Below, piece by piece: positions 1-41,242 of a stretch of 64,000 nucleotides of DNA (the first letter of the stretch is position 1; the number at the start of each line of letters is the position of its first letter). Under the pieces are notes generated by a model, which did not search any database, was not told the origin of the DNA, and saw only the letters and a program-made list of their open reading frames with translations. The DNA comes from a virus. Where the stretch lies: IMG/VR virus record IMGVR_UViG_3300035698_009139; one strand, 5' to 3'. The translations under genes and the position numbers were made by a program.

Positions 1-52
1 GAGATTGTCAGATCGGGATGGTCTCGCTTCGTCCGTGCCTTCCGACTCACCC

Positions 53-81
53 AATATCACACATTGCACATTCCGAGACAA
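53..81 (-). promoter_or_regulatory. Leftward sigma70-type early promoter, back-to-back with the promoter at 106-134
   Basis: Minus strand TTGTCT (81-76), 17 nt, GATATT (58-53). Confidence 0.6.
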
Positions 82-148
82 CAGCAAATTAAATCATTTT
101 ATCTGTTGTCTGACAACACGAGCAGGCCTATATTGAGGGGGTCAACAA
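79..148 (+). repeat. 70-bp exact direct repeat (copy 1) containing an early promoter
   Basis: Identical to 2685-2754; TTGTCT(106-111)-17-TATATT(129-134), then GTCAAC. Confidence 0.95.
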
Positions 149-161
149 ACGGAGAAATCAA

Positions 162-932
162 ATGCGCGTTACCGAAGAAATCAAGCAGCAGATCAATGAG
201 AAGCTGCAGCAGTCGATCGACCTCGCCGAAGCACATTTCGTCGGCATGAAGTTCCCCTTCCCCACTGTGTCATATAAGGTCAGAGGTCGTGTGGCCGGAT
301 ATGCCAACACCACCCACAACACCGTTGACTTCAATCAGGTCTTGCTGATGGAAAATGTCGATGCATTTATCGCACGAACAGTTCCACATGAAATGGCCCA
401 CCTGATTGATGGTAAAGTCAACCCGGCAGGACATGAAGGCGGCGCCACAGCCGATCGGCACGGTCGGTTCCGGCGCATCAAACGCGACATACACGGTGAG
501 TCGTGGAAGAACGTGATGCGCGTCGTCGGTGCTGAGGCCAGTCGCACGCACTCGTATGACACATCCAACAGCACCGTCCGCACGAAGGCCAAATTCATCT
601 ACAAGTGTGTTGAGCACGGTGCAGAGATGCACCTTGGCGCAAAACGCCACAAGAAACATCAGTCCGGCATCACATACCACCTGAGTGGGCATAAAGGGTG
701 CACATTCGCTCTGCAGTCTGCCAATGCACCTACAGCCCCAGTGCCGGACGACGTGCGTACAAACGCTCCTACCGGGTATTCAAAGCTGGACAAGTGCAGA
801 TCGATATACAGCCTGGAATGGACCAGGCAAGAAGCGCTCGCCGAGTTTCAGGCAGGCGACATCGGATGCACGCCGGCCGGCGCAGCAACATACTACGCCA
901 AGCTGAAAAAAGAATTTGAAGAACAGAGTTGA
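162..932 (+). CDS. SprT-like zinc metalloprotease with a C-terminal small helical (TPAGAxTYY) domain
   Basis: HEMAH (HExxH), HGESWK and RVAGYA motifs of SprT; GGAG RBS. Confidence 0.8.
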   Translation: MRVTEEIKQQINEKLQQSIDLAEAHFVGMKFPFPTVSYKVRGRVAGYANTTHNTVDFNQVLLMENVDAFIARTVPHEMAHLIDGKVNPAGHEGGATADRHGRFRRIKRDIHGESWKNVMRVVGAEASRTHSYDTSNSTVRTKAKFIYKCVEHGAEMHLGAKRHKKHQSGITYHLSGHKGCTFALQSANAPTAPVPDDVRTNAPTGYSKLDKCRSIYSLEWTRQEALAEFQAGDIGCTPAGAATYYAKLKKEFEEQS

Positions 933-969
933 CCCGCACACCCGATTGTGGGATATTAAGTGAGTCAAC
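928..969 (+). promoter_or_regulatory. Early promoter cassette GTTGAC-N30-GTCAAC
   Basis: TTGACC-17-GATATT, followed by AAGGAG RBS. Confidence 0.75.
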
Positions 970-986
970 CAACAAGGAGATACAAG

Positions 987-1898
987 ATGCATACAGTAGA
1001 AGCGAGAGGCGGCCGTTACCACATCGTGAATGGTGAGGGTGTGTCGGTCAAAGATTACGGACACAAGCATACTGCAACGAGCAAGCTCGAAGCGTTCAAC
1101 ACAGTGGCTGACCCGACTGAACAGCTGCTGACATCGCCGGCAGCTCGCTATCCGATCAACAAGCGGTTCGAATTCACATCCGCTCTGGTTCAGATGGTGG
1201 TGGATGGAATCACTCCATCTGCAATTGTCACTGGCGACGGTGGTCTCGGCAAGAGCCATACCGTTCTGGAATCGCTGTACGCTTCCGATATGGAAGACAT
1301 CTCGCTGCTTGAGATGGAAGAAGGCGATGAGATCGAATGCAAAAACGCAGACGGCTCGTTCCGGTACTACAATATTGTCAAAGGTTTTTCAACAGCAAAA
1401 GGGCTGTATGAGATGCTTTATGACAATCGCCACAACCTGATCATCTTCGATGATTGCGATAGTATTCAGAAGGATGCCAACGCGATCAACTTACTGAAAG
1501 GTGCACTTGACTCGTATGACAAGCGTACCATTAGTTGGCAGAAGTCGGCTGGCTTTGGTGATGACTACCCCCGTACTTTCCAGTTCGAGGGCGGTGTAAT
1601 ATTCATCAGCAACATGACACAGGAGCGTCTCGATCAGGCCCTGCGCACACGAGCTATGTGTGTTGATCTCAGCATGACGGTCGCTCAGAAGATAGATCGG
1701 ATTGAGTTTGTTAGTAAGGAGCGCAAATTCCTTCCTGACTATACAGCAGAAGTCAAGGCCGAATCTGTTGAGCTGATTCGGGAGCACATGACCGATGCCA
1801 ATGAGCTGTCAATCCGGTCACTGATCAATGTGTGCAAGATCGCCAAGAACGGTAATGCCGATTGGAAAGACCTCGCGACCTACATGCTCACGAACTAA
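987..1898 (+). CDS. AAA+ / P-loop ATPase
   Basis: Walker A GDGGLGKS, Walker B LIIFDD, sensor FISN, ALRTR arginine finger; start set by AAGGAG RBS. Confidence 0.85.
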   Translation: MHTVEARGGRYHIVNGEGVSVKDYGHKHTATSKLEAFNTVADPTEQLLTSPAARYPINKRFEFTSALVQMVVDGITPSAIVTGDGGLGKSHTVLESLYASDMEDISLLEMEEGDEIECKNADGSFRYYNIVKGFSTAKGLYEMLYDNRHNLIIFDDCDSIQKDANAINLLKGALDSYDKRTISWQKSAGFGDDYPRTFQFEGGVIFISNMTQERLDQALRTRAMCVDLSMTVAQKIDRIEFVSKERKFLPDYTAEVKAESVELIREHMTDANELSIRSLINVCKIAKNGNADWKDLATYMLTN

Positions 1899-1908
1899 AG
1901 GTCAACAG

Positions 1909-1960
1909 GTAATTAATTGTTGACTGGGTCGGTGTCCTCCGGGATGCTGGCTCAGTCAAC
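1909..1960 (+). promoter_or_regulatory. Hairpin early promoter cassette (52-bp exact repeat of 3493-3544)
   Basis: TTGACT-17-GATGCT; 1919-1960 folds into a ~19-bp stem with G:T pairs. Confidence 0.8.
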
Positions 1961-1976
1961 CAAAAGGAACGATGTG

Positions 1977-2147
1977 ATGAATGAACTGATCAAAGCGATG
2001 GAACGTCTGACAGCATGGAACGCATTTGCGATCGCTGTCATCGATGGAAACCGATTCGAAGACATGGGCCCGGCATATTGCCACCAGGTGCCCGTCGATG
2101 ACGCAATAGCGAACGGCGCGCGGTACATGGCGAGGTACGCCCGATGA
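1977..2147 (+). CDS. Hypothetical early protein
   Basis: ATG after promoter and AAGGA RBS; overlaps the start of the next gene. Confidence 0.65.
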   Translation: MNELIKAMERLTAWNAFAIAVIDGNRFEDMGPAYCHQVPVDDAIANGARYMARYAR

Positions 2148-2356
2148 TGTGCTCCGAGTGCAAGGACCGCGCACACACCGCTGCTGATGACGCACAGCTC
2201 GTTGCTGACCAGCGGGAAGTGTTCATCGGCTGGATGGAGAGCATCGCAGCGGACAAGCCCGGACACACGCTGTCTACCACCTTCCTGCAGGAGAAGGCAG
2301 CAGTCGTGTCGCGCAACGTGCAGGGCGCTCTGGACCAGTGGGTTGAGATAATCTGA
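2144..2356 (+). CDS. Hypothetical early protein
   Basis: ATGA overlap with upstream gene. Confidence 0.6.
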   Translation: MMCSECKDRAHTAADDAQLVADQREVFIGWMESIAADKPGHTLSTTFLQEKAAVVSRNVQGALDQWVEII

Positions 2357-2363
2357 TATAGCT

Positions 2364-2405
2364 GTTGACCTCGATTGATGTACGACGTACATTGATCAAG
2401 TCAAC
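2364..2405 (+). promoter_or_regulatory. Hairpin early promoter cassette
   Basis: TTGACC-17-TACATT; GTTGAC-N30-GTCAAC with internal ATGTACG-A-CGTACAT palindrome. Confidence 0.8.
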
Positions 2406-2423
2406 ACACAACGGAGAAATAAG

Positions 2424-2564
2424 ATGCCAGATCGCGATGATACGGACTACAAGAACAACCTCGACCTGTTCGAAAACGACACACAGTTCGATGCAGACTT
2501 CGAGCGCTATCTGGACCAGAAATATGATGTGGAGCAGTATCTCCGGGCGGCTGACGCGGCCTAA
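2424..2564 (+). CDS. 46-aa acidic early mini-protein (not in ORF track)
   Basis: GGAG RBS; MPDRDDTDYKNNLDLFENDTQFDADFERYLDQKYDVEQYLRAADAA; flanked by promoter and terminator. Confidence 0.75.
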   Translation: MPDRDDTDYKNNLDLFENDTQFDADFERYLDQKYDVEQYLRAADAA

Positions 2565-2589
2565 CACAGGCGCGACAAGCTGCTAACTT

Positions 2590-2626
2590 ACCGCCGGGTG
2601 GCTCACGCTGCTCGGCGGTCTTTTTA
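2590..2626 (+). terminator. Rho-independent terminator
   Basis: ACCGCCGGGTGGC-TCAC-GCTGCTCGGCGGT stem followed by CTTTTT. Confidence 0.8.
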
Positions 2627-2658
2627 TATGCGCCCGCCGAAAATCAAGACGGCACTTC

Positions 2659-2687
2659 ATTGTCGCACACCCCTGGCCCAACGTCAA
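2659..2687 (-). promoter_or_regulatory. Leftward (antisense) sigma70-type promoter candidate
   Basis: Minus strand TTGACG-17-GACAAT, back-to-back with the promoter at 2712. Confidence 0.5.
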
Positions 2688-2754
2688 CAGCAAATTAAAT
2701 CATTTTATCTGTTGTCTGACAACACGAGCAGGCCTATATTGAGGGGGTCAACAA
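2685..2754 (+). repeat. 70-bp exact direct repeat (copy 2) containing an early promoter
   Basis: Identical to 79-148. Confidence 0.95.
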
Positions 2755-2767
2755 CAGGAGCAATCGA

Positions 2768-3232
2768 ATGAACAAGTGGATCAAAATAGCAGCAGTCGCA
2801 TTAGCAGTAGCAGCGCCCAGCACGGCAGCAGCAGGCTACTATGACGCCGACCGCTCTACCGTTCGCAACATTCATCTGGATGTCAACTGGGAGATCAAAT
2901 ACACATCTGATAAGAAGCAGTATGGCGTAACCGACAAATGGGTTGTTGACCCGGCCAGCAAAAAAGGGGACTGCGAGGACTACGCAGTTACCAAGCGGGC
3001 GAAAGCAATCGCCGCCGGGATTGCACCGGATCGGCTGAAGCTGATCATGTTTATCAGCAAGCGATACGCCACCGGCCACCTTGTGCTGATGCTGGATGAT
3101 AAGCATGTGTATGACAACGTTGCAAAACGCAGCTATGACAATCCCTGGTCGGGGAAGCGGATGTTGAAGTTCACGAAGTATGGATTTAATGTGCATGCGG
3201 TCGGATATGCTGTTGTGCCGAATCACGATTAG
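2768..3232 (+). CDS. Secreted transglutaminase-like cysteine peptidase (BTLCP / peptidase C93, LapG-like)
   Basis: Signal peptide; GDCEDYA catalytic Cys motif, GHLVL His, YDN Asp. Confidence 0.85.
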   Translation: MNKWIKIAAVALAVAAPSTAAAGYYDADRSTVRNIHLDVNWEIKYTSDKKQYGVTDKWVVDPASKKGDCEDYAVTKRAKAIAAGIAPDRLKLIMFISKRYATGHLVLMLDDKHVYDNVAKRSYDNPWSGKRMLKFTKYGFNVHAVGYAVVPNHD

Positions 3233-3241
3233 TCCTATATT
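3213..3241 (+). promoter_or_regulatory. Early promoter overlapping the 3' end of the BTLCP gene
   Basis: TTGTGC-17-TATATT. Confidence 0.65.
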
Positions 3242-3274
3242 GCGGGGGTCAGCAATCAACCAAGGAACAAACAA

Positions 3275-3496
3275 ATGACCGTACGAATTTGGAACAAGAC
3301 AGATACCCAGGCAACGATCAAGCGGCTTCGTGAAGCTGGATACATCGTTGCAAAGAGCGCGGCCGGCACCTACCGGATCGTTGATGACATTATCAACAAC
3401 AAGGAATGGATGCATGAGGACGGCAAGCCGCTGTTCCGCGCAATGATCGGAAACAACGGATATCTGGTCAACTTCCATTCGGATCTGATGTCGTAA
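3275..3496 (+). CDS. Hypothetical early protein
   Basis: AAGGA RBS, promoter upstream. Confidence 0.75.
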   Translation: MTVRIWNKTDTQATIKRLREAGYIVAKSAAGTYRIVDDIINNKEWMHEDGKPLFRAMIGNNGYLVNFHSDLMS

Positions 3497-3544
3497 TTAA
3501 TTGTTGACTGGGTCGGTGTCCTCCGGGATGCTGGCTCAGTCAAC
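3493..3544 (+). repeat. Hairpin promoter cassette, exact copy of 1909-1960
   Basis: 52-bp identity. Confidence 0.95.
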
Positions 3545-3558
3545 TGAGGAGATTCAAA

Positions 3559-3729
3559 ATGGCGAAAACAGTAGCTGAGCGTCTCGATGCGATGGACCAG
3601 CAGATCTTCAACCTGCAGTCGGAATTGGAATTCGGTCACGCCACCGGCCGCGAGCGGGTCAATAAGGTGGGCAAGTTGGCCGAGTTGTTCTTGCGCTTCG
3701 ATGCGCTGCGCAAGCAGGCGGGCGTCTGA
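3559..3729 (+). CDS. 56-aa helical early protein (not in ORF track)
   Basis: GAGGAG RBS; MAKTVAERLDAMDQQIFNLQ...; TGATG coupling to the next gene. Confidence 0.75.
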   Translation: MAKTVAERLDAMDQQIFNLQSELEFGHATGRERVNKVGKLAELFLRFDALRKQAGV

Positions 3730-3953
3730 TGAACGGCCCATGGAATCACGCACGAGCAGAGTGGCAGCAGCATGTCGAGCGCAAGCTGGTCAAGCTGCGG
3801 AAGTGCCACCAGCATCTGGTAGGCGTCCGGATCGATGGCGACGGCCTGTTCGACATGGGCCCGATCGACCGGATGATCGCAGACACTGTTTCCAACATAG
3901 CTGAATATGAGGCGGAAGTCAACGCTAAAATAAATGGAGATAATCTAAATTAG
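3729..3953 (+). CDS. Hypothetical early protein
   Basis: Translational coupling to the upstream gene. Confidence 0.65.
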   Translation: MNGPWNHARAEWQQHVERKLVKLRKCHQHLVGVRIDGDGLFDMGPIDRMIADTVSNIAEYEAEVNAKINGDNLN

Positions 3954-3956
3954 TTG

Positions 3957-3985
3957 TTGTGCCATAATGCTAGCTGTCCTATATT
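3957..3985 (+). promoter_or_regulatory. Early promoter
   Basis: TTGTGC-17-TATATT. Confidence 0.65.
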
Positions 3986-4028
3986 GGGGTTGTTAGAGAG
4001 ACATCAATCAAACCAAGGAAGAAAACAG

Positions 4029-4274
4029 ATGACCAAATTATCCAACGTCGCAGTCGCAGTTGAAGCCATCACCACCAATAAGGCTTCGGAAGTTCCGGAA
4101 TCTGCCAAGGCCGTGATCACCTCGCTCCAGACCACGTTCGGCAAATCTCGCGCATCGGCATCGTCCACCTACTACGCTGCCAAGCAGCTGGTTGAAAAGA
4201 CCGAAGCTGATGCGAAGCGTGAGGCCAAGAATGCCAAGCGTCGGAAATCCAATGCGGCCAAAAAGGCCGACTAA
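4029..4274 (+). CDS. Small basic protein, putative DNA-binding (SASSTYY motif, Lys/Ala tail)
   Basis: AAGGA RBS; resembles the TPAGASTYY domain at 12268-12630. Confidence 0.7.
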   Translation: MTKLSNVAVAVEAITTNKASEVPESAKAVITSLQTTFGKSRASASSTYYAAKQLVEKTEADAKREAKNAKRRKSNAAKKAD

Positions 4275-4281
4275 TCGGACC

Positions 4282-4307
4282 GGGGCTTGATGCAGAAGTC
4301 AAGCCCC
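4282..4307 (+). terminator. Stem-loop downstream of the gene
   Basis: GGGGCTTGA-8nt-TCAAGCCCC; no clear U-tract. Confidence 0.45.
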
Positions 4308-4315
4308 AATTCGCT

Positions 4316-4357
4316 GTTGTCTGGCAATCGACCAGCTGCTAGGTTGGGGAGGTCAAC
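4316..4357 (+). promoter_or_regulatory. Early promoter cassette
   Basis: TTGTCT-17-TAGGTT, then GTCAACAACAGGAGCAATCGAATG identical to the leader at 2747. Confidence 0.7.
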
Positions 4358-4372
4358 AACAGGAGCAATCGA

Positions 4373-4504
4373 ATGACAACCAAACAAAACGTTTTCCTCT
4401 TTCTCGGGGCCCTCACAGTAAATTCCAAAGTTCCTCATTTCATCCAAATCAGAGCACTCAAAATCCAAACTTGGATGGGATCATATGAAGAGATGGGTTT
4501 GTAA
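4373..4504 (+). CDS. 43-aa early mini-protein (not in ORF track)
   Basis: AGGAG RBS; MTTKQNVFLFLGALTV...EEMGL, between two promoters. Confidence 0.6.
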   Translation: MTTKQNVFLFLGALTVNSKVPHFIQIRALKIQTWMGSYEEMGL

Positions 4505-4518
4505 CAGCAAAATAAGCT

Positions 4519-4560
4519 GTTGACCCAAATCCCCCAAACAGGTAGATTGGGGGAGTCAAC
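4519..4560 (+). promoter_or_regulatory. Hairpin early promoter cassette
   Basis: TTGACC-17-TAGATT; GTTGAC/GTCAAC plus TCCCCCAA/TTGGGGGA pairing. Confidence 0.8.
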
Positions 4561-4578
4561 AAACAAAGGAACGACCAG

Positions 4579-4938
4579 ATGGCACAGATCGAAATCACAG
4601 ATGCAATCGCCTACGAAGGAAACGCCTATCAGTATGCGATGGAAGATGGAGTGGGAACATATCTGGTCCCCTGCATCGAAGCTCATACAGCTGATGGTGG
4701 GACGTTCACATTCCCGAACGAGGTTCACACCACGTGGGATGATCGAGGCGGCGCTGGGCTTCACGCCCGCTTCGATATTATGAAGGGACACGAGATCGCA
4801 GCCGAAGTCAAGCGCCGCGGATGGATCGATGGAGATCATTGGCAGGACGTTACCGGCTTCGTAGACACTCGCTCATACGAGCAGAAGTGTGACGATGAAT
4901 ACGAACGCGAGTGCATGGAGCGTGCAGGCTGGCGTTAA
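4579..4938 (+). CDS. Acidic hypothetical early protein
   Basis: AAGGA RBS, promoter upstream. Confidence 0.8.
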   Translation: MAQIEITDAIAYEGNAYQYAMEDGVGTYLVPCIEAHTADGGTFTFPNEVHTTWDDRGGAGLHARFDIMKGHEIAAEVKRRGWIDGDHWQDVTGFVDTRSYEQKCDDEYERECMERAGWR

Positions 4939-4945
4939 TTTAATC

Positions 4946-4986
4946 GTTGACTGGGGCATCGTTCTCGGGATGATGTCTCAGTCAAC
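4946..4986 (+). promoter_or_regulatory. Hairpin early promoter cassette
   Basis: TTGACT-16-GATGAT; 19-bp stem with G:T pairs. Confidence 0.75.
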
Positions 4987-5001
4987 AACAGGAGATATGA
5001 G

Positions 5002-5187
5002 ATGAAGATCGGTGATACAGTTAGCTTCAAAGACGATGTCGAGATGACCGGCAAGATCACCCACCGGCATGTGATGATGAACACTTACGGCAGTAACGCA
5101 CTGGTGTTTGATATCGAGGTCGATCAGGGACGTGGTGCTGAATCGTACCGTGTCGAAGCCAAGTCCTGCTGGGTCGAGGAAGACTGA
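5002..5187 (+). CDS. Small SH3/KOW-like beta protein
   Basis: MKIGDTVSF...GKI motif; AGGAG RBS. Confidence 0.7.
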   Translation: MKIGDTVSFKDDVEMTGKITHRHVMMNTYGSNALVFDIEVDQGRGAESYRVEAKSCWVEED

Positions 5188-5399
5188 TGAGTACGTATGA
5201 TTTTATCAGGGCGGCGTGGGAGCTGAAGCAGGTCGAGCTGAAAGCAGCTCGGGAGCATGTTCGGCAGCTGGAGGATCATGTCAGTGACCTCGCGGACATG
5301 TTACATGATGAGGTTGAGGCATCCCGAGTCCTGCTGGGCTTGATTCAGCCGGACGAAGAGGCGGACTGCAACCCGACGGTGCCGCGGAAGCTGCGTTGA
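5187..5399 (+). CDS. Hypothetical coiled-coil protein
   Basis: TGATG coupling. Confidence 0.65.
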   Translation: MSTYDFIRAAWELKQVELKAAREHVRQLEDHVSDLADMLHDEVEASRVLLGLIQPDEEADCNPTVPRKLR

Positions 5400-5541
5400 C
5401 TTTTGAAAACAGCCGGGGGGCGTATATACGGCGGCCGGTAGTTTCGACGTACGTGGTAGATATCCATCATATAGAATCGACGGCCGGCGGACAAAATAAC
5501 ACGACTCGAATTTTTTTCCACACAGATAAAAGGCGTCAGAG

Positions 5542-5772
5542 ATGAGTTTGCCAGAACGCGGAAGTTTCATCGATCATCAGAATTTTCTTGAGCACCGGAT
5601 CGAGAAAAACCGCGCATCTTTGTTTAAGATGAAGATCACGTGGTTATGGAGCGATCCAGACTACAAACGGATTGGAGACCAGCTGATTGAGTCGTGTCAG
5701 CATGCAATACAAGCTGATGAGCGCGAGTGGGAGCAGTTGACCGGAAAAGATATCAGAGAATGTGAGGATTAA
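5542..5772 (+). CDS. Hypothetical protein
   Basis: ORF with AAGG RBS. Confidence 0.6.
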   Translation: MSLPERGSFIDHQNFLEHRIEKNRASLFKMKITWLWSDPDYKRIGDQLIESCQHAIQADEREWEQLTGKDIRECED

Positions 5773-5775
5773 CTG

Positions 5776-5804
5776 TTGTCTGATGATCTCGATGTGTATA
5801 CGAT
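5776..5804 (+). promoter_or_regulatory. Early promoter of paralog array A
   Basis: TTGTCT-17-TACGAT; leader GAGGTATC..AAATGGAG shared with 8739-8790. Confidence 0.65.
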
Positions 5805-5831
5805 GAGGTATCGAATAAATGGAGCGATATT

Positions 5832-6278
5832 ATGAGCGACACATACGACGAACAAATTGAGGCGCTGCTGAGCGGCGATGTTTCGACCTACTATAAATTG
5901 GTCGGCGATTATTATCGGCGATACGACCGATACGACCTCGAAAGACCGCCGACATTCCACTTCACTGCTTGGAATGTCGGCGGCGATTACCCGGATAGCA
6001 TTTTCTCGAAGATTGGGGAGACTGGGCGATGCGCTTCCCAGATCGAGTACTCGCGGCGATGGTGGGGTGCCGGCAAGATAGATGCAGCTGGCGCGAAAAT
6101 CAAGGCCGCCGTGATGAAAGGATCGACCGTATCTCTGCCGCGATTGGCAAATCCGTTTCTCCTCCGAAAGACCGTTTTCACCCGAGAGCAGCTGGAAGAG
6201 TTCGCCCGGCGGCAACGCGCGGCGGCCGCATATGCAGAAGAACTCGAATCACTGAAGGAGTTTACCGCAGATGTTTAA
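5832..6278 (+). CDS. Hypothetical protein, tandem paralog family A (1/3)
   Basis: DTYDEQI...WN...CAS.IE...FTREQLEEFARRQR shared with the next two genes. Confidence 0.85.
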   Translation: MSDTYDEQIEALLSGDVSTYYKLVGDYYRRYDRYDLERPPTFHFTAWNVGGDYPDSIFSKIGETGRCASQIEYSRRWWGAGKIDAAGAKIKAAVMKGSTVSLPRLANPFLLRKTVFTREQLEEFARRQRAAAAYAEELESLKEFTADV

Positions 6279-6786
6279 TACACCGAGCGCCGACACATAC
6301 GACACATACGACGAACAAATCGATGCGATTATGTCCAGCGACAAGCTTGCCTACTGGGAGCTGATAACCGAAGACTGGATCGATGCGGCCGACCATACGC
6401 GCGAGTCTGGTACCTCACATTACGAGATGTGGAACAGCAGTGGGGCCCACAAATCCAGCCTATTTGCATTCCTTCCGCAAGGGTGTGTCGGCGGGCAGTG
6501 TGCTAGCACAATCGAGCACATGTACTCGGGCGAGATCGAGGAGGAAGGCTCTACTGCAATCAAGGATATCAGAGATGCTATAATGCTGGGCAGCACCCCT
6601 CTGCCGGACATGCAAAGCAATCGGTTTCAGACGCCGGATGGGGATTCGGGTTTTGACTCTGCTGCGCAGCTGATGGCCGATACCATCCGGCGGCAAGATC
6701 AACGCCACGACTTCAAATTCACCCTCGGTGAGCTGAAAGAGTTTGCTCGCCGGCAACGCATAGCAAGGATCGAATACAATGCCTGA
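6271..6786 (+). CDS. Hypothetical protein, family A (2/3)
   Basis: Same motifs. Confidence 0.85.
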   Translation: MFNTPSADTYDTYDEQIDAIMSSDKLAYWELITEDWIDAADHTRESGTSHYEMWNSSGAHKSSLFAFLPQGCVGGQCASTIEHMYSGEIEEEGSTAIKDIRDAIMLGSTPLPDMQSNRFQTPDGDSGFDSAAQLMADTIRRQDQRHDFKFTLGELKEFARRQRIARIEYNA

Positions 6787-7225
6787 TACATATGACGCCC
6801 AAATTGACGCGCTACTCAGCCACGACTACCAAGCGTTCTGGGATCTGATTTATCCGGAGGAAGAAGGCGGCCACCACGGTCAATCGAAAGATCACTTCGA
6901 GATGTGGAACAGCTCTGGTGCCGTCTCGCACAGTCTATTCGCATTCCTTCCGCAGGAATATGTGTGCGGCTTATGTGCTTCAACAATTGAGCACATAAGC
7001 CTGGGATCGGTCGCCGGCCGCCTCGCAGAGATTCGAAGTAAACTAATTGCTGGCGGGCCCTCGCTGCCTAACATGCAGACCTCGGAGTTCATGGATCCGA
7101 GTTTTGAGGTGCCTTCTGACGCAGTGGCGTTGTCCCGCAGTCAGAACAGGCGCAGCTTCAAATTCACCCGCGAGCAGCTGGAAGAGTTCGCTCGTCGGCA
7201 ACGATTGGCAAGGAGCATGTTATGA
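6779..7225 (+). CDS. Hypothetical protein, family A (3/3)
   Basis: Same motifs. Confidence 0.85.
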   Translation: MPDTYDAQIDALLSHDYQAFWDLIYPEEEGGHHGQSKDHFEMWNSSGAVSHSLFAFLPQEYVCGLCASTIEHISLGSVAGRLAEIRSKLIAGGPSLPNMQTSEFMDPSFEVPSDAVALSRSQNRRSFKFTREQLEEFARRQRLARSML

Positions 7226-7608
7226 TAGGACCTCATACGTTCGACGACTTCAAGACGTGGCTTTTGGAACAGGATCCGGACCTCACCTACGATTGGTTCG
7301 ACGGCAAGATGTGCCCCGTCGGCCGGTTCTTAGCTGATTATGGCTACCAGGGATTCACCAGCGAGTTTAGTGAGCTGTTCGAAGGTGTCACCGTGATCAG
7401 CGGGCCCGATGTTGAATTTGATGCATTTGATGCGTTCCGGGCCCGGTTCAACCAAGACCCACGTGAAATCATATATGAGTTCCTGCTGCTGAACAATGAA
7501 GGGAAAGATGTATCAACGAAGTATTCTAGTTCTGGTGGGCGGCGAGGTTCGTTGATGGCTACGGCGCAGGCTCGGATCAAGCGATTCGAATACACCGGTG
7601 ATGTCTGA
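7222..7608 (+). CDS. Hypothetical protein, paralog family B
   Basis: TFDDFKTWL..QDP...YDW.....CPVGRF. Confidence 0.8.
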   Translation: MIGPHTFDDFKTWLLEQDPDLTYDWFDGKMCPVGRFLADYGYQGFTSEFSELFEGVTVISGPDVEFDAFDAFRARFNQDPREIIYEFLLLNNEGKDVSTKYSSSGGRRGSLMATAQARIKRFEYTGDV

Positions 7609-7931
7609 TGGCTCGGAAATTCGAACGGACGTTTGCAGACTTCGTTGAATGGTACGGCACCGATAAGAAAGGCTGCTGTGTCAGTCAGTTCTTTGAAGCG
7701 GCAGAAGCACAGTACGCGGCACCGCTGACTCCCGACGGGTTCAGTATTCTGAAGGTTGGCCAGTTCCACGACATATTTGTTGATGCTACTGGTGATCGGG
7801 AAGAAGGGGTTCGCCTGTATTGGAACATCGTCGCTGGTGGTACCGACAAGATCGATCTGAACCCGGACGAGTTGTACATCACATTCGGCGACGTGCTGGA
7901 CCGTGCGCTCGAATATCAGTTGAACACATGA
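7608..7931 (+). CDS. Hypothetical protein, family B
   Basis: TFADFVEW, CCVSQF, TFGDVLDRA. Confidence 0.8.
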   Translation: MARKFERTFADFVEWYGTDKKGCCVSQFFEAAEAQYAAPLTPDGFSILKVGQFHDIFVDATGDREEGVRLYWNIVAGGTDKIDLNPDELYITFGDVLDRALEYQLNT

Positions 7932-8053
7932 TCGTAACAATTCGCAATAGGACGCTACTGAAGTTGTTGTGGCCAAGGCCGGAAGGATATCCACCGAGTG
8001 TTACAGCAAGTCATAAATTGTGGTTGCAGTGGGCAACACATTGGTTTAAATGA
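7928..8053 (+). CDS. 41-aa Trp-rich mini-protein
   Basis: ATGA overlaps at both ends. Confidence 0.45.
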   Translation: MIVTIRNRTLLKLLWPRPEGYPPSVTASHKLWLQWATHWFK

Positions 8054-8393
8054 TGGGACGTAAAATGAAGTATGCAAATAACATCGATGGGTTGATTGAT
8101 TGATGACCAAGCCTCGTGATGAAGAGTTCGACTGGGACTCGACAGCCACTTGTTGTATGGGTCAATTCTATAATAGATCCAACGCCGGATACACCCGATA
8201 CGCCGACATGTTTATTGCGTCCGTAGGCGGCAATGGCAGAGAAGGTGTTCAATTATACAAATGGATATGTGCCGGCGGGACGGACGCTATCAGGGCTAAC
8301 CGGATGGCCCGCAATAGTTTTTCGACAAGTATGATGGTCAAATTCGGTGACGTGTTGGACCGTGCATGTGAATGGCAAGCGAGGGCAAAATGA
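8053..8393 (+). pseudogene. Family B member frameshifted near 8100
   Basis: MGRKMKYANNIDGLID* then a different frame MTKPRDEEFDW..CCMGQF..KFGDVLDRA; break lies in a TTGA x3 tract. Confidence 0.55.
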
Positions 8394-8734
8394 TGGAATA
8401 TACTTTCGAAGGATTCGTTAATTGGCTGGGCACACAGGACCCAGACGATGGCTATTGTTGGGGTGATCATCTGGATTGCCCTGTAGGCCGCTTCCAACAG
8501 GCCTGCCGAGATAGCGGGACGATAGTCATCGACCCAAAGTGTGAGTATGCCACGCTGTTCAAGGGACTCAGAAAGCGTCCGACAGCCTGGTCGTTGGTCT
8601 GGGAGTTACTTTTCAAAAATACTCCGTTGAAAACGACCACCCCTTACTGGGATATCACAGCATCAGACGGACCCCGTACCATGGGCGCGTGTTTGAAACG
8701 TGCACTAAAATATACGTATATCGGTACCGAATAA
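8390..8734 (+). CDS. Hypothetical protein, family B
   Basis: YTFEGFVNWLGTQDP...CPVGRF. Confidence 0.8.
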   Translation: MMEYTFEGFVNWLGTQDPDDGYCWGDHLDCPVGRFQQACRDSGTIVIDPKCEYATLFKGLRKRPTAWSLVWELLFKNTPLKTTTPYWDITASDGPRTMGACLKRALKYTYIGTE

Positions 8735-8738
8735 ATCG

Positions 8739-8766
8739 TTGACCCATTTACGAAATCGTGTATGAT
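8739..8766 (+). promoter_or_regulatory. Early promoter
   Basis: TTGACC-16-TATGAT. Confidence 0.6.
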
Positions 8767-8793
8767 GAGGTATCAAACAAATGGAGATCTCGA

Positions 8794-9165
8794 ATGGAAT
8801 ACGACTTCAACGACTTCACTAAATGGCTCGGCCGCCAAGACCCGAATACCAAGTATGACTGGCATTCTTGTGCCGAATGCGCTGTTGGGTCGTTCCTGAT
8901 AGACCAGGGCGTTTCGAAAGATGACGTTCATGGGATGCTATCGAAATTCAGCGAGATCTTCGATAATGTTGAGGCGATCGACCCCAGCAAGGTCAGCATC
9001 AACGATCGAAAATCCTCTCGTGATCGATATCACTATATCACTCACGACCTGTTGCAGCGGGCCGATGTCTCAGATGTCGACGACACAAAAGCGGGCGGCA
9101 GAATTCCGGATGGTGTCACATGCCTAAAGATAGACTCAACCCATCAATCATGGACGTGGCCATAA
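8794..9165 (+). CDS. Hypothetical protein, family B
   Basis: YDFNDFTKWLGRQDP...YDW...CAVGSF; GGAG RBS. Confidence 0.8.
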   Translation: MEYDFNDFTKWLGRQDPNTKYDWHSCAECAVGSFLIDQGVSKDDVHGMLSKFSEIFDNVEAIDPSKVSINDRKSSRDRYHYITHDLLQRADVSDVDDTKAGGRIPDGVTCLKIDSTHQSWTWP

Positions 9166-9371
9166 CATTCTTCCAGGCGGTACTATTGTGTGTTGCCTTG
9201 GCTCTCCTTGCCCACTTAATAATCGCGTTCACCAAATGGTCCATTCCGATGTATCTGATGGATTGGAACTCCGCTGGGTGGGAAATAACTCGGATGCTTG
9301 GGGGTGGATTGTCTATCTTATTCACCGTTATGTATCACTTCATCGAAGACACAGCGGAAACCAGCAAATGA
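9120..9371 (+). CDS. Small membrane protein (2 TM)
   Basis: Two hydrophobic segments; start may be 9150. Confidence 0.6.
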   Translation: MPKDRLNPSIMDVAITFFQAVLLCVALALLAHLIIAFTKWSIPMYLMDWNSAGWEITRMLGGGLSILFTVMYHFIEDTAETSK

Positions 9372-9802
9372 TTATATCCGACACAGAGAAGCTGCAGTCG
9401 AAGGTCCTAGAGTTCAAGGACATGCAGAAGTGGGCCGACGTCCACATCGATGGGATTCTGGGTGAATACCTGGACATGGTTGGCGAGTCTGGACTGAACC
9501 TATATGTCGACAAATGGGAATTCTCAGATACGTCAGACTTGGTCGTGATCGAATGGATCGGATATGGTGCTCGTGGGTACACGGATGGTGGATCGATCTC
9601 GATGCCAATCGAGTATCTGTGGGACTCGGATTGGCAGGATAAAGCTAGAGCTGCCATGGAAGAAAAAAAGCGCGTCGAACGGGAAGAAAAGGCGGCGGAC
9701 GAGGCCCGGCGCATACAAATGGATCTGGAACACGACCGGGACACGCTGGCCGAACTGCTCCGCCGCGAAAAGTTGGGTGATCTGTGTTGGAAAGGTCGAT
9801 AG
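9368..9802 (+). CDS. Hypothetical protein with charged C-terminal helix
   Basis: ATGA overlap; coding-like composition. Confidence 0.7.
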   Translation: MIISDTEKLQSKVLEFKDMQKWADVHIDGILGEYLDMVGESGLNLYVDKWEFSDTSDLVVIEWIGYGARGYTDGGSISMPIEYLWDSDWQDKARAAMEEKKRVEREEKAADEARRIQMDLEHDRDTLAELLRREKLGDLCWKGR

Positions 9803-10018
9803 ATGATAACTGATGTACAAGCGTTGTTTGTCATCGTGGCGTTAATGCTTGCGTATATTTTCGCCGCCACCGCTACATATGGGTATGCACACAACCGATG
9901 CACGACTTTTCGAAGTCAACCGAACACGTGCATAGTTGATGGTGCGCTTTATGGTGGTGGGTGGCCGGTGTATTGGGTTATGCATACTGGGTATTTAGTG
10001 GGGACATCATCCAAATGA
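9803..10018 (+). CDS. Small membrane protein
   Basis: N-terminal TM, WPVYW motif. Confidence 0.65.
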   Translation: MITDVQALFVIVALMLAYIFAATATYGYAHNRCTTFRSQPNTCIVDGALYGGGWPVYWVMHTGYLVGTSSK

Positions 10019-10194
10019 CTAAAATCATAATAGGTGTTGTTGTGTTAGGATCATTGGTTTTTCTCGGAGGCATTGGCATCAAAATCGTCGATATCTGGAA
10101 CAGAGGTGAACCTGGGCCTGCTATAATGATCGGCGGGCTGCTCATTATAGCAGGGGCCCTTATATCGTACCTTGTTTCCACAACGTCCCGATGA
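10015..10194 (+). CDS. Small 2-TM membrane protein
   Basis: Hydrophobic; ATGA overlaps. Confidence 0.65.
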   Translation: MTKIIIGVVVLGSLVFLGGIGIKIVDIWNRGEPGPAIMIGGLLIIAGALISYLVSTTSR

Positions 10195-10379
10195 GCAAAC
10201 TTACACCGGACCAGCAAACGCACAATATCACGATGCAGATGGCTGCAGATATAGGTCGTCAGATGAAGGACCAGTTGTTATATGACGCTGGAGTCAGCCC
10301 ACATTCCTATGTTGGCGAGTCAGCTTTAAAAGTGATTGATGAATATATTCGGCGAATCGAGACATTATACCACATATGA
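10191..10379 (+). CDS. Hypothetical protein
   Basis: ATGA overlap. Confidence 0.55.
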   Translation: MSKLTPDQQTHNITMQMAADIGRQMKDQLLYDAGVSPHSYVGESALKVIDEYIRRIETLYHI

Positions 10380-10409
10380 GCCAATAAATACATCTGAAAG
10401 GATCGTATT

Positions 10410-10727
10410 ATGATTAAATCATTACTAATGTCCGTCGTTTTAGCGGCCGGATTAATTCTCTCAACCCCAGCAATCGGGCAGCAACAAGCTGCCTGTGCTA
10501 AGCGGGCAGACATAGTCAAGCATATGCACAAGAAGTATAAAGAGGCCCCCGTTGCCATCGGATTGGCAAACAACGGTGGCGTGCTTGAAACGCTCGTTGG
10601 GCCTAAAGGTAAATCCTGGACGATTATCATCACAATGCCATCTGGGAAGACGTGTATGGTCGCGGCCGGGGAAAACTGGGAGCGTATTCCACAAAAAGCT
10701 ACGACACCGGAAGGAACAGACAGCTGA
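10410..10727 (+). CDS. Secreted/periplasmic small protein resembling a conserved alphaproteobacterial family
   Basis: Signal peptide; C..R......KY.E...G...WT...T.P.G.TC..A.G..W pattern. Confidence 0.7.
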   Translation: MIKSLLMSVVLAAGLILSTPAIGQQQAACAKRADIVKHMHKKYKEAPVAIGLANNGGVLETLVGPKGKSWTIIITMPSGKTCMVAAGENWERIPQKATTPEGTDS

Positions 10728-10942
10728 TGGAAAGTTACAACGCAGAGGACGATCAGTCTGAAAACAACTACAGCTGGGCAGTGCATCGTACTCCCACCGA
10801 GGACTGGGTGCTGCTGAAGAACGGTGAAGAGCAGTTCAGAACACCTCAGTCGTTGATATTCAACTCATATGCATATTCGATGTTCGCATCAGAAGAAAAT
10901 CTGATGACGTTCACACGTCCAGAAGGCATGCCGCTCAATTAA
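10727..10942 (+). CDS. Hypothetical protein
   Basis: TGATG coupling; last gene of the rightward block. Confidence 0.6.
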   Translation: MESYNAEDDQSENNYSWAVHRTPTEDWVLLKNGEEQFRTPQSLIFNSYAYSMFASEENLMTFTRPEGMPLN

Positions 10943-10963
10943 TAATTCGTTTCGATCGTCAGA

Positions 10964-11218
10964 TCAACCAAACCGTTTTGCAGCTTCTCGGACAGCTTCT
11001 CGGATCTCGTTAGGGTCCACTGCATTTCTGTCACGATCGAATATCACAAAATCACCTCTACGTGTGTCGATCCGAATGTTCAAATACTTCAGCTTCGGGT
11101 TGATCAACCACATTTTGTTGTTGCTGTTGATAACGGAAACCATCGCATGCAACTCTTTGTACCACACGTTGAATCCAGCTCCGTTCGTGGGCCAGTCATT
11201 CAATTCACTCATAACCAT
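10964..11218 (-). CDS. Hypothetical protein
   Basis: ORF with AGGAG RBS; last gene of the leftward block. Confidence 0.7.
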   Translation of the reverse strand: MVMSELNDWPTNGAGFNVWYKELHAMVSVINSNNKMWLINPKLKYLNIRIDTRRGDFVIFDRDRNAVDPNEIREAVREAAKRFG

Positions 11219-11762
11219 CTCCTACGTCGTTGTTTGCATACCCACACGTGCATCCTATAGGTACCGGTGTGTGACCGAGCTCCATCGGTCCATGCACGAT
11301 TGAATCACCGCACCAGCACCATTGATCGTCTATGATGTTGTTGCAGCCCATACAAAACATGATATGACCGTCCGCACCGATAGGGAATGTCTCGATATGC
11401 TCAACAGGGAACGGGCAGTCTTGGTCCATCGTTCTATGTGCGTTTAAATTAGGTTCATCATCATGCTCGCCGTCTTTGCGATTGACATCAACCGTCTTCC
11501 GACGCCACGCCCGCAGTTCATAATTATACAATGCCATCCGCATATGATACACTGCATCTAACGTCTCAGCACACGGTAGTATATCGTGCAGGTAGAGGGT
11601 GCGGTCTATTAGAGCCCGCAACACCTCCTGCGTTTGTAGGCCCGGCCATTCCTGATCATATGAAACAGCCCCACCGCTACGTTTAATGAATGTCAGACGG
11701 TGTTTGTCTTCAGTGCCAAGCTGCTCGAGGTCATACACATGGCCATCGTCAACCATTCTCAT
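11205..11762 (-). CDS. Tad1-like (Thoeris anti-defence sponge fold) protein with Cys-rich C-terminal extension
   Basis: HxY, LxFxK, G....EVL..LIDR, PCxE...AV.H...AL.....R...R pattern matches Tad1 by eye. Confidence 0.55.
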   Translation of the reverse strand: MRMVDDGHVYDLEQLGTEDKHRLTFIKRSGGAVSYDQEWPGLQTQEVLRALIDRTLYLHDILPCAETLDAVYHMRMALYNYELRAWRRKTVDVNRKDGEHDDEPNLNAHRTMDQDCPFPVEHIETFPIGADGHIMFCMGCNNIIDDQWCWCGDSIVHGPMELGHTPVPIGCTCGYANNDVGDGYE

Positions 11763-12118
11763 ATGAAGTCAGCAATTTGATTATTGAACTGTGTAATAAT
11801 GGTATCAGGAGGGGCATCGATACTCAGCGCAGCGCTATACCCATCGACCTTAACGACGGTCATCCATCCCGGTAGCGGAACGTCCTCGTCGACTAATGCG
11901 ATAGAGAACGACCATTCACCGTGGTAGTGCGCGAGAACAACCATCTCACGCGGGTCATCAAAGTCGTACTCGTGTTCTAGTGCCGGTGCGCTCAGCTTGA
12001 AAGCAGCAAAAGCACAATTAAGATAGTCGTCTCCATATCGCTCTTCATCCCCATTATGAAACACACAATCGCCTTCGATGTACACGATGTCATCGCTGTG
12101 GCCTTTGAACTTGATCAT
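11759..12118 (-). CDS. Acidic hypothetical phage protein (GxSDD motif)
   Basis: GAGGA RBS. Confidence 0.7.
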   Translation of the reverse strand: MIKFKGHSDDIVYIEGDCVFHNGDEERYGDDYLNCAFAAFKLSAPALEHEYDFDDPREMVVLAHYHGEWSFSIALVDEDVPLPGWMTVVKVDGYSAALSIDAPPDTIITQFNNQIADFI

Positions 12119-12311
12119 TGTACCATTCCTCAATTCTCAATTGGATTTTAGTCCGAACTTGATCAGGGGCATCCGACCACACCAGCACCATCGAAAACAA
12201 TATCTTTGGCAATCTGCTGGTGTGGAAGAAACATCCCCACTCATCTTCGCCGACTTCTTTATCGCAGTTACCCGGCCAGCGACAGTTGGCTTTCGGGTTC
12301 CCACACTGCAT
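12090..12311 (-). CDS. Small Cys/His (zinc-finger-like) protein
   Basis: C..PG.C...WGC..H...LP pattern; fills the gap in the leftward block. Confidence 0.55.
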   Translation of the reverse strand: MQCGNPKANCRWPGNCDKEVGEDEWGCFFHTSRLPKILFSMVLVWSDAPDQVRTKIQLRIEEWYNDQVQRPQR

Positions 12312-12630
12312 CAGCCATCTCTTGAGCGATGCGCACAACTTCTTCCGCAGTACGATTATTCGGCTTGTATTTGACATCCTTTTCAACCTTCTTCGGTTGC
12401 CGAACCAACATTTGCGGACGAGTAGCTTTCGTCTCCTCCTGCTTCTTCGGTTCAGGCGTTACGGTAACAGGGTCGGTGCCCTGCTTGCTCGCCTTATTTA
12501 CCTTCGCATAATAGGTAGATGCGCCGGCCGGTGTCATATCTGCTCCGTCGACGAACAAAACGATCATTTCTTTCCGAGTCAACCCCGGGTTGGCTGCGAA
12601 TATTTCGGTAACCATTTCAAGTTTTGTCAT
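12268..12630 (-). CDS. Putative HTH-like DNA-binding early protein (TPAGASTYY)
   Basis: Consensus promoter and AAGGA RBS upstream. Confidence 0.75.
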   Translation of the reverse strand: MTKLEMVTEIFAANPGLTRKEMIVLFVDGADMTPAGASTYYAKVNKASKQGTDPVTVTPEPKKQEETKATRPQMLVRQPKKVEKDVKYKPNNRTAEEVVRIAQEMADAVWEPESQLSLAG

Positions 12631-12632
12631 TT

Positions 12633-12959
12633 TCAATTTCCTTCGGGTTCTGATGTTATTATTATACCAGATTCCCGGTCATAGGTCAACGGTTTGTTGA
12701 AATAATTATTCAAAAACCTACGATCAGCAAAGAAATCATCACACGCAGTCGTGGTGTTGAATTCCGGTCCTACTTTAGTCGTATGAGCGTATCTGATTGT
12801 TATCTCATATCTCAATTGCCGGCCGCATAGACCCCACCACCGTCGCTCACCCACTTCTATCGGTTCTTTTAGGTATAAGGTAATTGTGTAGTAGGCGAAT
12901 TCGGCTCGAACCTCAAAATGTGTGGCATCTTTTAAAATCTCAGACGAGAATTGAGTCAT
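12633..12959 (-). CDS. Hypothetical protein
   Basis: Overlap-coupled ORF. Confidence 0.6.
   Translation of the reverse strand: MTQFSSEILKDATHFEVRAEFAYYTITLYLKEPIEVGERRWWGLCGRQLRYEITIRYAHTTKVGPEFNTTTACDDFFADRRFLNNYFNKPLTYDRESGIIITSEPEGN
12661..12689 (-). promoter_or_regulatory. Consensus sigma70 promoter
   Basis: TTGACC-17-TATAAT with extended TG. Confidence 0.8.
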
Positions 12960-13201
12960 TTTACACCTGCATGTCTGATTTCAGCTGTAAGTATGTGTAT
13001 ATCTTCTCCTGGGCTACCAAGCCCCTCGCATACAAAGAAAAAATCAGAATCCAGGCGGCACAACGATTTTGTTTCATCCGCATATACTTCGTATACAAAG
13101 CCATCGAAGTGGGACCAAGTTTTCCGAGTAGCGAGGCTGGCGTCGAAAATTTGGTTGAGTTCTCCCATCACTTTGTCAACTTTTTCATCTAATGTCATCA
13201 T
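12956..13201 (-). CDS. Hypothetical protein
   Basis: Promoter directly upstream. Confidence 0.6.
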   Translation of the reverse strand: MMTLDEKVDKVMGELNQIFDASLATRKTWSHFDGFVYEVYADETKSLCRLDSDFFFVCEGLGSPGEDIHILTAEIRHAGVK

Positions 13202-13222
13202 ATGCTTTCTTAAATTTGAATC

Positions 13223-13251
13223 AGTATACCACTAATCCACATAAGATTCAA
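13223..13251 (-). promoter_or_regulatory. Sigma70 promoter flanked by a TTGAATC/GATTCAA inverted repeat
   Basis: TTGAAT-17-TATACT on the minus strand. Confidence 0.7.
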
Positions 13252-13709: not shown

Positions 13710-13728
13710 ATATCCACTCCTTTAATTG

Positions 13729-13755
13729 TATTTATATAGACAGCATTTATAAATA
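13729..13755. promoter_or_regulatory. Divergent pair of T4-type late promoters
   Basis: TATAAATA on minus (13729-13736) and plus (13748-13755). Confidence 0.8.
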
Positions 13756-41232: not shown

Positions 41233-41242
41233 GGGGCACGCT

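Follow-up and report, generated by a model that had tools for sequence, protein, structure and literature searches.

Why should an early promoter of a phage carry, at its own predicted start site, the reverse complement of its -35 box, and would the hairpin that this arrangement allows act in RNA or in DNA? The question is raised by one end of a 64,000-nucleotide viral DNA (IMG/VR record IMGVR_UViG_3300035698_009139), the whole of which is called here the window. The motif GTTGAC-N(25-35)-GTCAAC has six exact matches in the 64-kb window, at 928, 1919, 2364, 3503, 4519 and 4946, with arms 29 or 30 nt apart, and dinucleotide shuffles gave 0.05 matches on average and in no case six. Allowing one mismatch adds the cassettes at 105, 2711 and 4316, for a total of nine, together with three more matches inside distant coding regions, where 1.2 would be expected by chance. 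All nine cassettes lie on the + strand between 105 and 4986, each preceding a small gene, and no cassette beyond these was found in the 64 kb. The original prediction held that the six copies and their three variants place the reverse complement of the -35 box at the predicted +1, and promoter geometry bears this out for 9/9, the predicted start site being the G of GTCAAC each time. The nine cassettes represent eight distinct sequences (c1919 and c3503 are identical), and as paralogues their copy counts are not independent events.

The genome contains T4-like profiles for the gp8 wedge, tail sheath, portal, gp23-type major head protein and helicase, and the major head protein shares 60-66% identity with those of diverse T4-like phages, 66% being the maximum for any GenBank phage. 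By these profiles, the phage is a deep-branching T4-like myovirus. The cassettes are clustered within 5 kb, in a region where nine of ten small ORFs have no PHROG match, and units of 52 nt (100% identical) and 86 nt (95%) are repeated in front of unrelated genes (Table 1). Relatives carrying these cassettes were not found in the collections searched.

Table 1. Cassettes, related promoters and neighbouring hairpins in the window.
Element	Position	Strand	Features
Type-B cassette c105	79..164	+	AT-rich upstream tract, -35 TTGTCT (106), 17-nt spacer, -10 TATATT; GTCAAC at predicted +1 (141-146), Shine-Dalgarno sequence, ATG of SprT-like gene; terminal pairing weak, nothing further; 86-nt repeat 95% identical to 2685-2770
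Type-A cassette c928	928..969	+	Upstream gene's stop codon inside -35 box; 7-bp terminal stem, interior not above chance
Type-A cassette c1919	1909..1960	+	Perfect 19-bp stem (5 G:U), 4-nt loop, -35 to +6; weak -10 box GATGCT; 52-nt unit 100% identical to 3493-3544, ending at exact 3' foot of stem
Type-A cassette c2364	2364..2405	+	Lower stem 7 bp, internal loop, upper stem 11 bp; folds near-symmetric, + vs -
Canonical intrinsic terminator	2590..2619	+	13-bp stem then T5; contrast to T-less cassette stems
Type-B cassette c2711	2685..2770	+	Copy of c105, after terminator; downstream gene encodes BTLCP-type protease, unrelated to gene after c105
Early promoter c3213	3212..3250	+	TTGTGC-17-TATATT, same family, without hairpin; natural control
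Type-A cassette c3503	3493..3544	+	Identical twin of c1919, precedes unrelated gene
Early promoter c3957	3956..3995	+	TTGTGC-17-TATATT, without hairpin; natural control
GC-rich hairpin	4282..4307	+	10 bp, without T tract; closes upstream gene directly before c4316
Type-B cassette c4316	4316..4357	+	-21.5 kcal/mol (+) vs -11.5 (-); 3 G:U pairs
Type-A cassette c4519	4519..4560	+	Lower stem 7 bp; C5/G5 upper stem 8 bp, spacer paired to discriminator
Type-A cassette c4946	4946..4986	+	Diverged c1919 homologue; perfect 19-bp stem (4 G:U), 16-nt spacer
Related early promoter c5775	5775..5812	+	Without GTCAAC; weak G:U-rich fold (-10)
Related early promoter c8738	8738..8775	+	Consensus-like -35 GTTGACC, TCAAAC at +1, without hairpin

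Each cassette has a predicted sigma-70-type layout (-35 box, spacer of 16-18 nt, -10 box), and in the alignment and ORF list it has the preceding gene's stop codon at its 5' end and, at its 3' end, a Shine-Dalgarno sequence and the following gene's start codon. Across 13 aligned promoters GTTG at -35, A at -11 and T at -7 are invariant, while GTCAAC stands exactly 7 nt past the -10 box in nine of them; the mean A+T content of the 20 upstream nt is 68.5%, compared with a background of 48% (sd 11.5). In six copies both arms are invariant in sequence, beyond mere complementarity. Four sister promoters (c3213, c3957, c5775 and c8738) have no hairpin, c5775 showing only weak folding, and the sisters carry the similar leader motifs TCAAAC, TCGAAT and ATCAAC. 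Since c8738 has GTTGACC at -35 but TCAAAC at +1, complementarity between the two sites is not obligatory.

Folded as RNA, c1919 and its twin c3503 reach -32.5/-32.9 kcal/mol (19 bp, 5 G:U) and c4946 reaches -28.9 kcal/mol (19 bp, 4 G:U), as had been foreseen for 1919-1960 and 4946-4986, which were described as stems of about 19 bp whose only irregular pairs are G:T on the top strand. No other 50-nt hairpin in the 64 kb is as stable as these three; among the cassettes they are followed by c4316 (-21.5), c4519 (-21.1), c2364 (-18.8), c2711 (-14.7), c928 (-12.4) and c105 (-10.9 kcal/mol). Interior pairing was compared with shuffles in which the -35, -10 and +1 boxes were held fixed, and only c1919/c3503 and c4946 (z about -6) and c2364 (p 0.006) exceed them; c4519 and c4316 are marginal, and c928, c105 and c2711 show no interior pairing above the shuffles, only a terminal repeat of 6-11 bp. 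Under these box-fixed shuffles, the description of the promoters as covarying hairpins is strictly true of three of the eight distinct sequences and not of all. A further frame proposed around the promoter at 13223-13251 (TTGAATC/GATTCAA) does exist, but its fold of -8 kcal/mol (z -1.7) is chance-like, and the minimum-energy structure uses other pairs. Given that three cassettes lack interior pairing above chance and four sister promoters lack the hairpin, it is not needed in every unit. Moreover, the quality of the -10 box is inversely related to stem strength, and because the strongest stems carry the poorest -10 boxes, some copies may be mainly hairpin and hardly promoter.

All non-Watson-Crick pairs of c1919 and c4946 are G:U on the + strand, and the reverse strands fold to only -13.6 and -15.9, respectively, in agreement with the claim that pairing is strand-specific; the folds of c1919, c3503 and c4946 are more asymmetric than any others in the first 10 kb (background -0.66 +/- 3.8). 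With DNA parameters c1919 gives -12.2 for the top and -7.1 for the bottom strand, compared with -32.5 as RNA, and the bottom strand of the strongest copies contains A:C mismatches. The original prediction had admitted both read-through RNA and single-stranded DNA or cruciforms as the place where the stems form; the sense-strand G:U asymmetry and the weak DNA fold support the former, and the same numbers disfavour cruciforms. Between c1919 and c4946 there are seven stem substitutions (two double compensatory and three single compatible changes) that break no pair, and random sets of 5+2 substitutions kept all 19 pairs in 3/10,000 trials. Covariation over the five distinct type-A copies is present but modest, with 72.6% of cells paired vs 65.7% in shuffles (4/500; for the covariation score, 20/500).

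Judged from motif, enrichment, folds, sense-strand bias, compensatory changes and repeats before unrelated genes, the cassettes are probably promoter-early stem-loops (PeSLs), or elements of that type, of a deep-branching T4-like phage, in which the hairpin would separate early transcription units. The idea of a dual-use promoter design was therefore correct but not new, being the published PeSL concept (Arbiol et al. 2010, PMC2839356; Comeau et al. 2014, PMC4122927). The proposed unit would run from an AT-rich upstream tract through a sigma-70-type promoter and a short leader with a Shine-Dalgarno sequence to the beginning of a small early gene; its -35 box and the surroundings of +1 are reverse complements, and the better-developed copies also pair the spacer with the -10 box and discriminator. 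Because the predicted start of transcription lies at the 3' foot of the stem, transcripts from the unit's own promoter would be hairpin-free, and only RNA from an upstream promoter would hold both arms and be able to fold. The hairpin would then be an intercistronic RNA structure insulating adjacent early transcription units, either by slowing or attenuating read-through, or by leaving the upstream message with a 3' end that resists nucleases, or both, and the embedded promoter would restart transcription for the next gene. Type-A copies directly follow the upstream stop codon without any other terminator, and separate hairpins precede two of the three type-B copies, in which pairing is weaker or displaced. 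Efficient intrinsic termination is doubtful, since no U tract comes after any of the nine stems, in a phage that otherwise possesses a canonical terminator at 2590-2619. The repeated units are probably also portable modules for recombination.

An alternative that keeps the structure in RNA, raised in the original prediction as processing to uniform 5' ends, holds that the stems are RNase III-type processing sites, at which read-through RNA is cut near the 3' foot into monocistronic messages with leaders like those of primary transcripts, in the style of the T7 early region. It can draw on the specificity of the structure for sense-strand RNA, on the missing U tracts, by which the stems are not classical terminators, and on the likeness of the 19-bp helices of c1919, c3503 and c4946 and the stem/internal-loop/stem of c2364 and c4519 to known substrates, among which are sites of the T7 R1.1 type. 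We consider it unlikely, however, given that three cassettes pair over only 7-11 bp, too little for the enzyme, that cleavage of a perfect 19-bp stem would fall in both arms, within the stem and not at its foot, leaving ends that differ from +1, and that Rfam has no family matching the cassettes.

It is likewise improbable that the terminal inverted repeat has no function of its own, GTCAAC being a conserved initiation or leader motif, inherited by paralogous cassettes, whose match to the reverse complement of the consensus -35 box is fortuitous, with stems gained later by a few copies. The leader motifs of the hairpin-less sisters, the consensus-like -35 box of c8738 without a complementary +1 and the chance-level interiors of three cassettes all fit such an origin, and in paralogous copies one event may account for all six identical arms. 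Yet one and the same terminal repeat is prolonged into a longer stem by four different interiors (c1919/c4946, c2364, c4519 and c4316), type-B copies keep their complementarity in a shifted register through flanking CTGTTG/CAACAG, and the seven differences between c1919 and c4946 leave every pair intact.

A more elaborate proposal takes the start-site geometry itself to be purposeful: the read-through hairpin would be trimmed by a double-strand-specific nuclease while primary transcripts are hairpin-free, so that a near-identical short leader results whichever promoter is used, and through its G:U pairs the structure would be confined to RNA, which would prevent a mirror-image promoter or cruciform on the other strand. 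We regard this as quite improbable; if true, the cassettes would be self-insulating, self-processing expression units with a promoter/hairpin balance tunable per copy. Very improbable, finally, is an element acting as DNA, whether a cruciform or single-strand hairpin (like those of N4 or of ssDNA promoters) or a pair of half-sites for a dimeric early-shut-off regulator, for although the arms of six copies are invariant and not just complementary, and c2364 and c4519 are near-symmetric on both strands, the strongest copies have the A:C mismatches and feeble DNA folds given above, the centres of the half-sites are separated by 36 bp, or about 3.4 helical turns, which presumably puts them on different helix faces, the copy interiors co-vary as no protein site needs to, and the phage is T4-like, the two giant ORFs scanned matching only DUF4815 (15381-21458) and Laminin_G_3 (41165-44602) and neither a polymerase domain.

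If the cassettes are PeSL-type elements, they bear on a class credited with insulating early genes and with driving the shuffling of genes in T4-type phages. PeSLs have so far been described only in a few enterobacterial and vibrio phage pairs. Published cases are RB49/phi1, T4/PST and KVP40/nt-1 (PMC2839356, PMC4122927). As a very distant T4-like lineage shows the same logic with unrelated sequences, embedding a promoter in a stem-loop is suggested to be a recurrent solution rather than the quirk of one group. The whole-promoter stem, the sense-only G:U pairs and the fall of stem strength with better -10 boxes provide a natural graded series of cassettes, suited to tests of the RNA-level role of the PeSL stem, be it in attenuation, in protecting 3' ends or in processing. 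In practice the gain is modest: better annotation of early transcription units, and compact insulated promoter parts.

Among known systems, phage N4 has a giant virion RNA polymerase whose promoters are short DNA hairpins with a stem of 5-7 bp and a loop of 3 nt; they share with the cassettes the coincidence of a promoter with a hairpin-forming inverted repeat. The cassettes were nevertheless rejected as promoters of the N4 type, having stems of 7-19 bp with sigma-70-type boxes, RNA-favoured structure with weak and strand-asymmetric DNA folds, and a T4-like genome. Intrinsic terminators are likewise GC-containing stem-loops at gene ends, but this candidate was also set aside, the terminator scan flagging 0/9 cassette stems while flagging the U-tract-bearing hairpin at 2590-2619. 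The early RNase III hairpins of T7 also form in sense-strand RNA between short early genes, just before the next ribosome-binding site and without U tracts; they show, however, characteristic internal loops and no overlap with promoters, whereas here the promoter lies inside the predicted hairpin and several copies are too short, sequence folds giving the 19-bp helices in three copies, and less in the others, by comparison with the about two turns of irregular dsRNA of the T7 type.

[quoted passage not shown] The definition of the class further includes a stem-loop that attenuates or terminates transcription coming from upstream, and gain, loss or exchange of genes between related phages, for which cassette-mediated indels or mini-circles are the sign. 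At the level of sequence, all PeSL features are present in the cassettes: a T4-like myovirus; the order stop codon, AT-rich tract, sigma-70-type promoter, stem-loop, Shine-Dalgarno sequence and start codon; clusters among small orphan early genes; near-identical copies before unrelated genes; and a stem, with G-T pairs on the sense strand, that lies between the promoter boxes or extends over them. The arms of the cassettes have no sequence relationship to RB49's G(n)/C(n) stems. The cassettes differ from the PeSL literature in that the stem, which lacks a U tract, wraps the whole promoter from -35 to +1, the -35 hexamer pairing with the +1 region, extends up to 19 bp as against the 6-8 bp stems found inside the promoters of refolded phi1 cassettes, and becomes weaker as the -10 box improves.

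The motif GTTGAC-N(25-35)-GTCAAC occurs six times against 0.05 expected, and all six exact matches sit where the original prediction had placed its cassettes (the type-A copies c928, c1919, c2364, c3503, c4519, and c4946, each named by its start coordinate). The type-B variants c105, c2711, and c4316 were recovered when one mismatch was allowed, together with three unrelated matches inside distant genes, the chance level being 1.2. A covariance model built from the six copies (R1) and run over the 64 kb returned no further convincing copy, its sole extra match (1449-1490, 23 bits, minus strand) probably being due to chance; this segment is an imperfect inverted repeat within the AAA-like gene. 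In an alignment of the 13 intergenic units of 91-8797 that resemble promoters, GTTG at -35, A-11, and T-7 proved invariant throughout, with a spacer of 16-17 nt, and the 20 nt on the 5′ side of the -35 box have an A+T content of 68.5% vs. 48%. Six bases lie between the -10 hexamer and GTCAAC in each of the nine cassettes, so that standard promoter geometry predicts transcription to start at the G of GTCAAC. Downstream come a short A/C-rich leader, a GGAG-type Shine-Dalgarno site, and a start codon. Most of the 13 early-promoter leaders (91-8797) have a GGAG-containing Shine-Dalgarno sequence, and GGAG is the motif cut by the RegB endoribonuclease in T4 early messages.

The RNA folds of the identical pair c1919 and c3503 reach -32.5/-32.9 kcal/mol with 19 consecutive pairs including five G:U, and c4946 reaches -28.9 kcal/mol, also with 19 consecutive pairs, four of them G:U; no other 50-nt segment on either strand of the window folds as stably as these three. 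The diverged homologues c1919 and c4946 differ at seven stem positions without a single broken pair, the changes comprising two double compensatory and three single compatible ones, and random substitution sets preserved every pair in only 3 of 10,000 trials. When the -35, -10, and +1 boxes were held fixed and the spacer and discriminator shuffled, interior pairing was highly significant in c1919/c3503 and c4946 (z about -6) and in c2364 (6/1000), marginal in c4519 (55/1000) and c4316 (76/1000), and not beyond shuffles in c928, c105, and c2711. No hairpin is found in four sister promoters outside the nine cassettes, c3213, c3957, c5775, and c8738, the last of which has GTTGACC at -35 but TCAAAC at +1. 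Tested formally in a single register, the five distinct type-A copies show modest covariation, with 72.6% of cells paired vs. 65.7% in shuffles (4/500) and a covariation score of 20/500. By the shuffling test, the proposal of covarying hairpins stands strictly for c1919/c3503, c4946, and c2364 and not for the cassettes as a whole. The TTGAATC/GATTCAA frame proposed at 13223-13251 is present, and its fold is indistinguishable from chance. It is unlikely that the terminal repeat is mostly fortuitous, with real stems in a few copies only. RNase III-type processing of the stems, which attain 19 pairs in the best copies, also appears improbable; T7-type RNase III sites would provide a functional analogy, and a search of Rfam with window 1-14000 at E up to 1 gave zero matches.

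The pairing is strongly strand-dependent. The reverse complements of c1919 and c4946 fold to only -13.6 and -15.9 kcal/mol, the largest strand asymmetry in the first 10 kb (background -0.66 ± 3.8 kcal/mol), and with DNA parameters c1919 yields only -12.2 for the top strand and -7.1 for the bottom strand. Given this asymmetry and the weak DNA-parameter folds, the structure is best read as sense-strand RNA and not as a cruciform, and action at the DNA level is very improbable. An antisense promoter was rejected on inspection of the reverse complements, in which the mirrored minus-strand -10 is without T at -7, lost through the G:U design. Elsewhere in the window, a perfect 14-bp inverted repeat at 5946-5983, which folds to -26 to -28 kcal/mol whichever strand is read, lies within the plus-strand ORF 5832-6278 at the head of a tandem of three paralogous genes (5832-7225), and a 16-bp near-palindrome at 10114-10157, with TATAAT on either strand, falls within a small membrane-protein ORF (10016-10194).

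Type-A copies begin 0-20 nt past the upstream stop codon without an intervening terminator; separate hairpins, the terminator and the T-less stem of the table, precede two of the three type-B copies. The sole T-tract terminator within the cassette region (see table) lies after a 46-aa gene (2424-2564). The GC-rich hairpin adjoins c4316 on its 5′ side and also has TTGA/TCAA in its arms.

Separate hairpins near the cassettes and the baseplate gene downstream
Feature	Window coordinates	Strand	Description
Canonical intrinsic terminator	2590-2619	+	13-bp stem then T5
GC-rich hairpin	4282-4307	+	10 bp, T-less; ends gene 4029-4274
gp8-like baseplate wedge	13809-15344		profile search

A U tract follows none of the nine cassette stems, which argues against efficient classical termination. 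Since the transcripts of a cassette itself are predicted to begin at the 3′ foot of the stem, the hairpin would be present solely in RNA coming from upstream. A 52-nt unit at 1909-1960 and 3493-3544, whose 3′ end is exactly the 3′ foot of the stem, is 100% identical between its two copies, and an 86-nt unit at 79-164 and 2685-2770 is 95% identical; each precedes unrelated genes. A MITE-like mobile element was rejected, the unit measuring 42 bp and the inspected flanks being without target duplication. Better -10 boxes go with weaker hairpins (Spearman 0.79, p 0.002, 12 distinct promoters in window 105-8775), the weakest (GATGCT, GATGAT) belonging to the strongest stems, a trade-off that is indicative only because the copies are paralogues. 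The joint reading that we favor, and consider fairly likely, is that the hairpin acts as an intercistronic RNA structure insulating early transcription units, via attenuation and/or 3′-end protection, that the embedded promoter restarts transcription, and that the units double as portable recombination modules. The original observation is confirmed, with true extended hairpins in some copies only, and its interpretation, stems formed in read-through RNA or in DNA around a dual-use promoter, is partly supported.

The first 5 kb of the window consist of small plus-strand genes. Three early genes are recognizable by their domains, namely those for an SprT-like protein, a PHROG 1250 protein of AAA-like type, and a BTLCP protease, and nine of ten other small early genes are without a PHROG match. 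Downstream of the cassettes, profile searches recover structural and replication genes of T4 type, including, besides the baseplate wedge, tail sheath, portal, a gp23-type major head protein, and a helicase. An AT-rich segment at 13720-13790, which carries a T4-type late-promoter motif (TATAAATA), separates the divergent minus-strand gene 13248-13709 from the gp8 homologue. No GenBank phage exceeds 66% identity in the head protein, which is best matched in Stenotrophomonas phage DLP6, Methylophilales and Pelagibacter myophages, and cyanophages, and blastn of window 1-8000 against GenBank phages gave zero nucleotide matches. From these gene profiles, the head protein, and the 8 kb without nucleotide match, the carrier is an uncultured, deep-branching T4-like myovirus.

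Cassette-bearing relatives were not found in IMG/VR, JGI metagenomes, GTDB genomes, GenBank phages, or protein-anchored loci. Cassette patterns gave nothing or single chance matches in IMG/VR, two chance matches in JGI metagenomes (one in a bacterial pyrD region, the other in a eukaryote-like contig), and one in GTDB genomes. Two recorded contigs carry an exact twin of the AAA-like early protein; homologues of this protein and of gp8 reach at most 55% identity, and in their loci the -35/+1 pattern is at chance level (7 in 727 kb). DLP6, the closest cultured relative by head protein, has four pattern matches, none promoter-like, and a literature search for the motif pair returned primer noise only.

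Among known elements, the cassettes lack a defining feature both of N4-type hairpin promoters and of intrinsic terminators. The closest likeness is to the promoter-early stem-loops (PeSLs) of T4-type phages, repeated intergenic elements with an AT-rich tract, a σ70-like early promoter, a stem-loop, and a Shine-Dalgarno sequence, which cluster among orphan genes and have been proposed to attenuate upstream transcription and mediate gene shuffling (PMC2839356, Arbiol et al. 2010; PMC4122927, Comeau et al. 2014). Compared by sequence alone, all sequence-level PeSL features are present here. When refolded, the phi1 intergenic cassettes give 6-8 bp stems within promoters, some with weak outer pairing that extends to the -35 region, whereas here the stem is up to 19 bp, encloses the whole promoter, and has its base formed by the -35 hexamer; its arms are unrelated in sequence to those published. 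The cassettes differ from PeSLs in degree and geometry, and what is new is a geometric variant of a kind of element already known.
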